Shown: positions 44,145-45,220 of the stretch, piece by piece
Numbering within the stretch: the first letter of the stretch is position 1
How the letters are laid out: every line of letters starts with the position of its first letter
Sequence record: MF158041
Length of the DNA stretch: 64,000 nt
Source of the DNA: Shigella phage Sf15
Strand: one strand, 5' to 3'
Notes under the pieces: model-generated
What the model saw: the letters and a program-made list of their open reading frames with translations, nothing else
Database searches by the model: none
Told to the model about the DNA's origin: nothing
Translations under genes and position numbers: made by a program

Positions 44145-44215
44145 TGGTACTCCATATCGGATTCGAACCGATACATAACACAGATTTTAAATCTGGCCTC
44201 TCTGCCAATTGGAGT
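44145..44215 (-). tRNA. tRNA-like, atypical (possible anticodon UAA)
   Basis: good T-arm and acceptor but only 71 nt, tiny D arm, anticodon arm is a perfect palindrome CAGATTT-T-AAATCTG. Confidence 0.35.
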
Positions 44216-44225
44216 AATGGAGCGT

Positions 44226-44301
44226 TGGCGGGGGATGATGGAATTGAACCATCTTCTTCGATTTCAAAGACCGAGGTTTTAACCTTGTAAACTAATCCCC
44301 T
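44226..44301 (-). tRNA. tRNA-Gln (UUG)
   Basis: cloverleaf, anticodon loop codon CAA. Confidence 0.65.
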
Positions 44302-44309
44302 ATTAAATT

Positions 44310-44386
44310 TGGTGCAGAATAGAGGATTCGAACCCCTAACTAACAACTTCGTAGGTTGCTGCTCTGTCCATTTGAACTAATTCTGC
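44310..44386 (-). tRNA. tRNA-Arg (ACG)
   Basis: full manual fold; sense anticodon loop CTACGAA; CCA encoded. Confidence 0.75.
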
Positions 44387-44548
44387 AATATCCTTTTGAG
44401 ATTCCTGTCTAGCTCTCTTCTTATCTCTTCTGAGAAAGCGTTTACGATGGTCTGTACGCCATTTGTAATAATCTTCTTCACCATCATGTGCTGCACAGCA
44501 GCCACAACTTGCAATTTCAACTTTACCATGTCTACCATAAGGCTTCAT
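44336..44548 (-). CDS. small basic Cys-containing protein inside tRNA cluster
   Basis: 70 aa ORF with AGGAG RBS 7 nt upstream of ATG; 3' 50 nt overlap tRNA-Arg. Confidence 0.35.
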   Translation of the reverse strand: MKPYGRHGKVEIASCGCCAAHDGEEDYYKWRTDHRKRFLRRDKKRARQESQKDIAELVQMDRAATYEVVS

Positions 44549-44564
44549 AGGAATCTCCTAAAAT

Positions 44565-44642
44565 TGGTGTTCCAAGACGGATTCGAACCGTCACTAATAC
44601 AAGGTTTGAGCTTGCATCCTCTGCCAATTGGGATACTGGAAC
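44565..44642 (-). tRNA. tRNA with anticodon CAA (Leu-type) but short variable arm
   Basis: 78 nt cloverleaf; anticodon loop codon TTG; no long extra arm. Confidence 0.5.
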
Positions 44643-44643
44643 T

Positions 44644-44718
44644 TGGTACTCGCTGAAGGACTTGAACCTTCTTCACCAACTTGTAAGGATGGGGCTTTAC
44701 CATATAAACTAAGCGAGC
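44644..44718 (-). tRNA. tRNA-Val (UAC)
   Basis: anticodon loop codon GTA; one U-U mismatch in anticodon stem. Confidence 0.55.
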
Positions 44719-44813
44719 TTTGAAGAGGTCTGAAGCTGTGCCGCTAACTCAACTCCGTGGGATTTGTTACGGTCTTCAGTTGACTCAAGCGGTCTTTCAC
44801 TTGACCTCAAAAT

Positions 44814-44890
44814 TGGTGCTGCTCACAGGACTCGAACCTGCATCTCCATCCTTACAAGGGATGTGCAATAGCCAATTATACGAAAGCAGC
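44814..44890 (-). tRNA. tRNA-Thr (UGU)
   Basis: anticodon stem CATCC/GGATG, loop codon ACA. Confidence 0.7.
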
Positions 44891-44896
44891 ATTATT

Positions 44897-44971
44897 TGGA
44901 GCATCCAGAGGGAATCGAACCCTCAACCTCAGTTTGGAAGACTGTAATTTTCCCATTTAAACTATGGATGC
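44897..44971 (-). tRNA. tRNA-Gly (UCC)
   Basis: perfect acceptor GCATCCA/TGGATGC, loop codon GGA. Confidence 0.65.
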
Positions 44972-44977
44972 ACTAAT

Positions 44978-45053
44978 TGGTGGAGAAGCAGGGAATTGAA
45001 CCCTGTACTTAAGTTTGCAAAACTTATGTTTTAACCATGTAAACTACATCCCC
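44978..45053 (-). tRNA. tRNA-Ala (UGC)
   Basis: anticodon stem TAAGT/ACTTA, loop codon GCA. Confidence 0.65.
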
Positions 45054-45059
45054 ATTGTT

Positions 45060-45135
45060 TGGTACAGGTGGAGGGAATTGAACCCATCGTCTTACTGATT
45101 AAGAGTCAGCCGCATAACCATTTTGCTACACCTGC
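45060..45135 (-). tRNA. tRNA-Lys (CUU)
   Basis: loop codon AAG; T stem with bulge, shared with the other Lys gene. Confidence 0.6.
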
Positions 45136-45142
45136 ATTAATT

Positions 45143-45220
45143 TGGTAGGAGACAAGGGATTCGAACCCTCAAACACCAACTTCTAAGGATGGTAGGTTTA
45201 CCAATTACCGTCAATCTCCC
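45143..45220 (-). tRNA. tRNA with anticodon UAG (Leu-type) but short variable arm
   Basis: 78 nt; loop codon CTA; anticodon stem paralogous to tRNA-Val. Confidence 0.5.

Follow-up and report, generated by a model that had tools for sequence, protein, structure and literature searches.

Three leucine tRNA genes with short variable loops

Shigella phage Sf15 (sequence record MF158041) carries an array of 26 tRNA genes within the 64,000-nucleotide stretch of its DNA analysed here (the window), and three of these genes combine a leucine anticodon with a short variable loop in place of the long variable arm of their host counterparts. An earlier note on this DNA, made from the letters alone, had singled out these three genes and left two readings side by side: structurally unusual leucine isoacceptors, or tRNAs of a different amino acid identity and hence possible recoding. 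The genes as delimited by ARAGORN and scored against the Rfam tRNA model (RF00005; gathering score 29 bits, exceeded by all three leucine genes) are as follows:

42945-47611, minus strand: array of 26 tRNA genes, including the three leucine genes (ARAGORN; annotation of Shigella phage Sf13)
44145-44223, minus strand: tRNA-Leu(UAA), 79 nt including an encoded CCA (ARAGORN; Rfam tRNA, 46.9 bits)
44565-44642, minus strand: tRNA-Leu(CAA), 78 nt including an encoded CCA (ARAGORN; Rfam tRNA, 44.0 bits)
45143-45220, minus strand: tRNA-Leu(UAG), 78 nt including an encoded CCA (ARAGORN; Rfam tRNA, 40.0 bits)

ARAGORN and the Rfam model place the anticodon at the same position in each of the three genes, and neither moves it elsewhere or reveals an arm that had been overlooked, so that the basic observation of three leucine-anticodon tRNAs without a long variable arm is borne out. 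The variable loops measure 7 nt in Leu(UAA), 6 nt in Leu(CAA) and 5 nt in Leu(UAG) according to ARAGORN, and a total length of 78-79 nt, CCA included, leaves no room for a long arm. Class II tRNAs have a variable region of at least 10 nt folded as a stem-loop, which is found in none of the three; what all of them show is the combination that defines a type I tRNA-Leu, namely a leucine anticodon (NAA or NAG) with a short, unpaired variable loop. The array also provides an internal control for the missing leucine arms: long variable arms are present in the tRNA-Ser genes at 43027-43119 (93 nt) and 45471-45560 (90 nt) and in the tRNA-Tyr gene at 46966-47053 (88 nt).

Leu(UAA) has a G1.U72 pair, A73, the variable loop GUUAUGU ending in U48, and an anticodon loop (UUUAAAA) that is the same as in the host gene leuZ. 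Its D arm, a 3-bp stem enclosing 11 nt (CUC C-AAUUGGCAGA GAG), has exactly the layout of E. coli tRNA-Leu. The earlier note had credited this gene with a tiny D arm, limits of 44145-44215 and, for the set of three, lengths of 71-78 nt; these details have to be corrected to an end at 44223 and lengths of 78-79 nt, and the D arm had appeared tiny because 8 nt were cut from the 5' end of the gene. The 15-nt palindrome reported in its anticodon arm (CAGAUUU-A-AAAUCUG) is indeed there, but it is no peculiarity of the phage: it arises because a UAA anticodon sits in a UUUAAAA loop beside a stem, and leuZ, with the same loop, is likewise palindromic. Leu(CAA) has A73, a 3-bp D stem with the D loop AAUUGGCAGA, the anticodon loop CUCAAAC and the variable loop AUUAGU, whose last nucleotide is U48, while Leu(UAG) has G1.U72, A73, the anticodon loop CUUAGAA and the variable loop UGUUU. 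All three anticodon loops are of the canonical 7 nt with U33.

Leucine identity nucleotides and comparison with host genes

The natural references for the three phage genes are the E. coli K-12 genes that carry the same anticodons, leuZ (87 nt), leuX (85 nt) and leuW (85 nt). Set side by side, host and phage genes differ in layout at a single point: the host variable region forms a stem-loop of 13-15 nt, where the phage has 5-7 unpaired nucleotides. The remainder is shared, apart from an ambiguous D-arm register in Leu(UAG), from the 7-bp acceptor stem, U8, 3-bp D stem and N-AAUYGGYAGA segment, through the 5-bp anticodon stem with its 7-nt loop and U48 directly before the T stem, to the T loop UUCGAAU, A73 and CCA, along with A14, the A15-U48 pair and G18G19. 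Phage Leu(UAA) and leuZ further share G1.U72, and Leu(CAA) has C38 where leuX has A38.

In E. coli, leucine identity is reviewed as consisting of A73, A15-U48, G18G19, A20a and tertiary pairs joining the D loop to the T loop; neither the anticodon nor the long arm is required, and armless variants remain active (PMC9976931). A73, U8, A14, A15 and U48 are present in all three phage genes, and in Leu(UAA) and Leu(CAA) the G18G19 dinucleotide stands at the leucine-specific place in the D loop (AAUYGGYA, with A20a), in a layout identical to that of leuZ and leuX. An inspection of identity elements, which the earlier note had proposed, thus comes out in favour of leucine, with a caveat for Leu(UAG), where an extra nucleotide before A14 is resolved differently by ARAGORN and the Rfam model and the placement of G18G19 depends on that resolution.

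A 2025 paper on the 26 tRNAs of phage Sf14, a close relative in which the Leu(UAA) gene is 100% identical, reports the three tRNA-Leu genes as "consistent" with leucine under the tRNAscan-SE isotype model (PMC12482277); the word "variable" was not found in that paper. Together with the identity nucleotides and the covariation described below, this agreement supports the first of the two earlier readings, that of structurally unusual leucine isoacceptors. We also considered an origin of the three genes from an E. coli host or prophage and rejected it, since a BLAST search of the three against 5,426 complete E. coli genomes returned no match.

Conservation and compensatory change

The array is 99% identical in Shigella phage Sf13 (Ounavirinae, Mooglevirus), whose annotation already lists the three genes as tRNA-Leu on the basis of tRNAscan-SE, and 80-98% identical in some 280 Felix O1/Moogle-like phages that infect Escherichia, Salmonella, Shigella, Citrobacter, Erwinia and Pectobacterium. 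Each of the three leucine genes is conserved in about 260-350 phage records, and given this conservation the short-loop pattern is not due to chance. Identity reaches at least 95% in 248 of the 261 phage records that match Leu(UAA) and in 248 of the 302 that match Leu(CAA). Leu(UAG) is more variable in its lineage and shows compensatory changes at the anticodon-stem pairs 27-43, 29-41 and 31-39: the stem reads CCAUC/GUUGG in the window, UCUCG/CGAGA in phage EC6, GCUUC/GUAGC in Pectobacterium phage Wc4-1, and CCGUC/GUCGG in a T5-like phage and in phage PVP-SE1.

One position of this stem is unpaired in several of these phages. A U30.U40 mismatch is seen in the window (45143-45220) and at three of the loci retrieved from other genomes (L004, 9835-9911; L005, from PVP-SE1, 8001-8077; L128, from Wc4-1, 3001-3078), and it looks conserved rather than accidental; Felix O1-like copies of Leu(UAG) (EC6, Si3, AN17P8) have C30-G40 in its place.

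Minimum-energy folding of single sequences gives a partial cloverleaf for Leu(UAA) and Leu(CAA), with z values of -2.1 and -1.8 respectively. As such folding proved uninformative, covariation was used as the evidence for the fold. We aligned 58 distinct armless tRNA-Leu sequences from isolated phages and viral contigs, chosen to end in CCA, and counted their pairs against the class I cloverleaf. Paired cells make up 96.9% of the helix positions, and each of the 20 helix pairs has changes on both sides. Covariation scores 1.012, as against 0.24 in shuffled alignments (none of 500 reaches the observed value) and 0.13-0.19 with the pairing partners slid. A15 occurs with U48 in 56 of the 58 sequences, and A73 in all 58. 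The short-loop cloverleaf is therefore kept up by compensatory changes.

Distribution of armless tRNA-Leu in phages and bacteria

To survey the form among phages, we compared the three genes with phage genomes by BLAST, fetched the matching loci and ran ARAGORN on them. Collinear matches from the D arm to the T arm extend well beyond the Ounavirinae, so that the comparison with related phages called for by the earlier note yields the same short form both in Ounavirinae relatives and in unrelated phage groups. Representative tRNA-Leu contents are:

Salmonella phage 5 (T5-like): two tRNA-Leu of 77 nt
PVP-SE1 (Vequintavirinae): one of 77 nt and one class II of 86 nt
Vibrio phage 1.081.O (KVP40-like): two of 77 nt
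Lactobacillus phage Bacchae (Herelleviridae): three of 74-77 nt
Erwinia phage Hena2 (Ounavirinae): three of 77-78 nt
Pectobacterium phage Wc4-1 (Ounavirinae): one of 78 nt and one class II of 87 nt

Armless and class II tRNA-Leu thus coexist both within one phage and within the Ounavirinae. In the mixed cases a class II tRNA-Leu(UAA) stands beside an armless Leu(UAG), in Wc4-1 (L128, 5238-5324) as in PVP-SE1 (L005, 5273-5358). Salmonella phage Si3 (KY626162; L131, 3001-3079) has a chimeric leucine gene, in which Leu(CAA) supplies the 5' part as far as the shared segment CCCAATTGGCAGAG and Leu(UAA) the 3' part, as though recombination between the two had caused a deletion; the acceptor stem of the chimera contains two G.U pairs and one mismatch.

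For a broader view, viral contigs of IMG/VR were scanned with a pattern seeded on the D-loop motif AATTGGYA and allowing either arm length, which gave at least 120 loci, a sample and not a census. The lengths of tRNA-Leu at these loci, counted without CCA, are bimodal: 50 of 182 (27%) fall at 74-79 nt and the other 132 at 80-97 nt. No tRNA-Ser shorter than 82 nt was seen in the sample, and only two of 23 tRNA-Tyr were shorter than 81 nt (72 and 75 nt). Among the matches listed, the short tRNA-Leu have A73 in 46 of 50 cases and an encoded CCA in 47 of 50, and their loci hold a median of 12.5 tRNAs.

The same D-loop pattern, restricted to short loops, was applied to bacterial contigs and again gave at least 120 loci. 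Among the matches listed, nearly all are genuine tRNA-Leu, of 73-76 nt, with the anticodons UAA, CAA, UAG, CAG and GAG (loci L132-L251), and in 88 of 120 the short tRNA-Leu is the sole tRNA of its locus (up to 8 kb). The contig titles, again among the matches listed, are mostly those of Actinomycetota, such as Nocardia, Rhodococcus, Mycobacterium and Gordonia, with Corynebacterium, Arthrobacter, Amycolatopsis and Bifidobacterium as further examples. These matches fit the type I tRNA-Leu(CAA) described in Streptomyces coelicolor (PMC6614811) and the report that in M. tuberculosis only tRNA-Leu-2, -3 and -5 have long loops (PMC11541572). The premise of the earlier note that bacterial tRNA-Leu is class II accordingly holds for the enterobacterial host but not for bacteria at large.

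Probable charging by the host synthetase and the loss of the arm

Taken together, these observations make it highly likely that the three genes are working type I, or armless, phage leucine tRNAs charged by the host leucyl-tRNA synthetase (LeuRS). They would be transcribed within the 26-gene array with their own CCA encoded, would most likely be charged with leucine by the host enzyme, and would then read the codons UUA, UUG and CUA, and probably CUG by wobble. The host LeuRS should be able to charge tRNAs without the arm because an E. coli-type LeuRS reads A73 and the core formed by the D and T loops (U8-A14, A15-U48, the G18G19 position and A20a), and neither the arm nor the anticodon.

The arm itself was probably lost because LeuRS places no constraint on it, and would have been retained by the serine and tyrosine tRNAs of the same arrays because the seryl-tRNA synthetase (SerRS), and to a lesser degree the tyrosyl enzyme (TyrRS), needs it. 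Among class II tRNAs, the arm would then be dispensable for leucine only. Shortening that is frequent in Leu, absent in Ser and confined to two of 23 cases in Tyr, as found in the sampled viral loci, is what such relaxed constraint predicts.

Indirect support for charging in E. coli comes from a T5-like phage. In the GenBank record "Bacteriophage 5 tRNA gene region" (AJ604531), the depositors note that its 77-nt armless tRNA-Leu(UUA), tRNAL2, acts as an effective amber suppressor when given a CUA anticodon, and a tRNA that suppresses amber codons must be charged in E. coli. The note is given for tRNAL2, the UUA reader; the 84% match of the window is to tRNAL1 of that record.

Several points weigh against charging of the Sf15 tRNAs by the host enzyme. 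When the type I tRNA-Leu(CAA) of S. coelicolor was offered to E. coli LeuRS in vitro, it was not leucylated, and the same study describes the E. coli enzyme as charging type II tRNA-Leu only (Fan et al. 2019, PMC6614811); a short loop is thus no guarantee of acceptance. The depositors' suppressor note is silent on the amino acid inserted. The remaining points concern Leu(UAG): an additional nucleotide stands between its acceptor stem and A14, which leaves the register of the D stem ambiguous and produces a C.C or a C.U mismatch in the D arm according to the register chosen; it has the U30.U40 mismatch in the anticodon stem and A37 where host leuW has G37; and its single-sequence minimum-energy fold is no cloverleaf (z = -0.3). 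ARAGORN takes the extra nucleotide as a third spacer nucleotide, and the Rfam model moves the acceptor stem by one; the ARAGORN version, in which A73 and CCA come directly after an acceptor stem of 7 bp, is backed by the homologs in the T5-like phage and PVP-SE1.

Alternative explanations

A first alternative bears on the reason for the arm's absence and does not conflict with leucine charging. Loss of the arm may have been selected as an escape from host toxins or defence enzymes to which the long arm marks out class II tRNAs, or as immunity to mis-serylation in any host; it would in effect hide the one class II tRNA whose synthetase tolerates the loss from factors that recognise the arm, candidates for which are class II-directed nucleotidyltransferase toxins of the MenT or AbiEii type, or SerRS cross-charging in foreign hosts. 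In its favour, MenT3 needs the long loop of tRNA-Ser (PMC11541572) and the abortive-infection toxin AbiEii is reported probably to prefer class II tRNAs (bioRxiv 10.64898/2026.01.19.700257, a 2026 preprint). The frequency of armless tRNA-Leu in the arrays of unrelated phage families and hosts would suit such a trait, as would the lack of any match among the complete E. coli genomes searched.

Selection for arm loss nevertheless seems unlikely to us, whether viewed as an escape from attack or, more specifically, as concealment of the one class II tRNA that can afford it. No toxin is known that acts on tRNA-Leu through its arm, and the long-armed tRNA-Leu of M. tuberculosis are not preferred substrates of MenT3 (PMC11541572). 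The serine and tyrosine tRNAs of the same phages keep their arms and so would still be exposed to a class II-directed attack, many Actinomycetota have armless tRNA-Leu on the chromosome outside any phage context, and related phages mix the two forms, with one of each in Wc4-1 and PVP-SE1. Were it correct all the same, armless tRNA-Leu would represent a counter-defence or host-portability trait that is widespread among phages and has gone unrecognised.

A second alternative takes the three genes out of translation altogether, as decaying relics or as decoy or anti-defence RNAs that are neither charged nor used on the ribosome. Phage tRNA arrays do include relics, among them a sub-threshold remnant at 46653-46727 in the present array, and several pseudo-tRNAs are listed in the record of Si3; the mismatches and weak single-sequence fold of Leu(UAG) would be at home in such company. 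A non-translational role also has a parallel, in that PMC11464382 describes a virally encoded tRNA that neutralises the PARIS defence system. The sequences themselves speak for adaptors: they are very highly conserved over hundreds of Ounavirinae genomes, all four helices are kept intact by compensatory changes, the anticodon loops are canonical with U33, and the anticodons fit heavily used phage codons. A73 is invariant in the 58-sequence alignment, which was selected for CCA, and in the viral sample, which was not (at least 120 loci), CCA and A73 are still found in 47 and 46 of the 50 short genes. With the armless tRNA-Leu of the T5-like phage in addition working as a suppressor according to its GenBank note (AJ604531), we consider a role outside translation improbable.

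The second of the two earlier readings, a different amino acid identity, was addressed through the codons. We matched 46 ORFs (open reading frames) of the window to orthologs from Erwinia phage Hena2 (a member of the Ounavirinae; mean amino acid identity 49%) and asked what stands opposite each leucine codon. TTA, TTG and CTA of the window are aligned with leucine in Hena2 in 55%, 61% and 58% of cases, respectively, next to 57% for CTT, 51% for CTC and 62% for CTG; the six codons swap freely between the two phages, and the non-leucine substitutes are mostly Ile, Val, Met and Phe. The phage has no tRNA dedicated to CTT, CTC or CTG. CTT and CTC must therefore be read by host tRNA-Leu, and since TTA, TTG and CTA behave alike, they too mean leucine. 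In 62 ORFs of the window, whose phage has a GC content of 39%, leucine is encoded by TTA (26%), TTG (16%), CTT (27%), CTC (5%), CTA (9%) and CTG (16%), so that the three tRNAs serve about half of the leucine codons.

That the armless tRNAs carry another amino acid, with UUA, UUG and CUA partly or wholly reassigned during infection, is hence scarcely credible and was rejected: it draws only on the structural oddity, on the indifference of LeuRS to the anticodon and on the fact that a class I body with a leucine anticodon could in principle fit another identity set, and it is opposed by rates of alignment with leucine (55-61%) that fall within those of the other three codons (51-62%), by early phage genes, which are necessarily read by host tRNAs so that these codons must mean leucine, by the leucine identity nucleotides (A73, A15-U48 and the Leu-type D arm), by the lack in all three genes of G3.U70, of G73 and of a long arm for SerRS, and by the leucine call of the isotype model in Sf14 (PMC12482277).

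A phage-encoded LeuRS was likewise looked for and rejected. Among the ten largest ORFs of the window, none showed an aminoacyl-tRNA synthetase domain, the sole ORF of at least 800 aa being a family A DNA polymerase, and no such synthetase is annotated in Hena2; about 23 kb of the phage lie outside the window and were not inspected directly.

Other features of the array and its surroundings

Besides the 26 genes, the array region contains several other features. The remnant at 46653-46727 (minus strand) scores 28.8 bits, just under the Rfam gathering score, and is not called by ARAGORN; with a good T arm (GAAGGTTCGATTCCTTC) and a degenerate remainder, it is probably a decayed tRNA gene. Four spacers of about 250-420 nt (45221-45470, 45561-45821, 45899-46146 and 46459-46882) contain no convincing ORF and give only weak Rfam matches of tmRNA-like or tRNA-Sec-like kind; comparable spacers in AJ604531 are annotated as "stable RNAs" and "tRNA-like RNAs with unknown functions".

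Of the two tRNA-Met(CAU) genes, that at 47284-47360 (minus strand) has a U1.C72 mismatch atop its acceptor stem. Its anticodon loop, CUCAUUA, is unusual and has U37, and its anticodon stem lacks the three basal G-C pairs typical of bacterial initiator tRNA; the tRNA may be an elongator, initiator-like or Ile2-like.

Two ORFs lie beside or among the tRNA genes. A 471-aa ORF (47777-49192, minus strand) lies at the upstream end of the array in the minus-strand sense, about 165 nt from tRNA-Pro; it corresponds to gp19 of Sf13, matches the Pfam families DUF2828 and DUF7788, and has the same place beside the array in Sf13. A 70-aa ORF (44336-44548, minus strand), corresponding to the hypothetical protein gp18 of Sf13, lies between tRNA-Arg(ACG) and tRNA-Leu(CAA), overlaps tRNA-Arg by about 50 nt at its 3' end, and encodes a CGCC motif and a basic C-terminal half. 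In Hena2, a gene annotated as tRNA nucleotidyltransferase (CCA-adding enzyme; L126, 40050-41318) adjoins the DNA ligase gene; no ORF of about that size is present in the corresponding part of the window, at 11.6-13.6 kb, upstream of the 366-aa ORF at 13613-14713 (putative ligase).

Implications and comparison with known systems

For annotation the consequences are small, as the genes already bore the tRNA-Leu label and the phage keeps to the standard code, but a warning follows: a leucine anticodon without a long arm is an unsafe signal of recoding in phage genomes. The greater interest lies with the synthetase. The reliance of virulent E. coli, Shigella and Salmonella phages (Felix O1/Moogle-like, T5-like, PVP-SE1) on type I tRNA-Leu would constitute a natural test case for the tension between the description of the host LeuRS as type II-only (PMC6614811) and earlier mutagenesis in which the arm proved dispensable (summarised in PMC9976931), and the armless tRNA-Leu of these phages may serve as ready-made minimal substrates for defining what E. 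coli LeuRS requires. In the same vein, arm loss by isotype in the sampled viral loci (frequent in Leu, none in Ser, two of 23 in Tyr) could be taken as an evolutionary read-out of how far each synthetase depends on the arm.

Type I tRNA-Leu as such is already known from mitochondria and Streptomyces, and is little discussed for coliphages. We found no paper describing the armless tRNA-Leu of Felix O1/Moogle-like or other coliphages, and no discussion of their implications for E. coli LeuRS, both of which are weak evidence given that older work was not covered; a review of non-canonical tRNAs does not mention phages.

The closest known relatives of the Sf15 genes are those of T5-like phages (Demerecviridae), where the tRNAL1 and tRNAL2 genes of AJ604531 were sequenced and manipulated long ago, and of PVP-SE1. 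These are 77 nt with CCA, with a variable loop of 5 nt, A73 and the D loop AAUUGGCAUA, and their hosts are likewise enterobacteria whose own tRNA-Leu are class II. T5-like tRNAL1, which reads CUA, shows about 84% identity to Leu(UAG) of the window and has the U30.U40 mismatch in common with it, and the PVP-SE1 copy is 81% identical to the same gene. The differences are that T5-like leucine genes are without the extra D-arm nucleotide of the Sf15 Leu(UAG), that T5-like phages have two leucine genes where Sf15 has three, that PVP-SE1, unlike Sf15, has a class II Leu(UAA) (86 nt) beside its armless Leu(UAG), and that tRNAL2 of the T5-like phage alone comes with a note on function, its amber suppression once the anticodon is changed.

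Among cellular examples, the type I tRNA-Leu(CAA) of S. coelicolor has a 5-nt variable loop and occurs in the same cell as class II tRNA-Leu (Fan et al. 2019, PMC6614811); in the short bacterial tRNA-Leu, the D arm (CCCAAUUGGCAGAGG) is almost that of the window's Leu(UAA) and Leu(CAA). Unlike the Sf15 array, however, the short tRNA-Leu of Streptomyces and of the bacterial contigs, mostly Actinomycetota by title, are chromosomal and mostly single genes. Moreover, S. coelicolor LeuRS has a leucine-specific domain adapted to type I tRNA, and its key element at the 3' end is C74, not A73 (PMC6614811); because E. coli LeuRS failed on the Streptomyces tRNA, the phage tRNAs must suit a different enzyme. 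A parallel in a horizontally mobile array is the short-looped tRNA-Leu(TAG) of a mycobacterial tRNA gene cluster, whose housekeeping isoacceptor is long; this cluster lies on a bacterial chromosome and not in a virulent coliphage, and the gene receives a passing mention there, with no analysis of identity or charging (PMC6582537). Finally, animal mitochondrial tRNA-Leu is also class I, with an identity that rests mainly on A73 and A14 (PMC9976931), but it has a loose, reduced core served by a dedicated mitochondrial LeuRS, whereas the phage tRNAs retain the full core of G18G19, T54-A58 and A15-U48.

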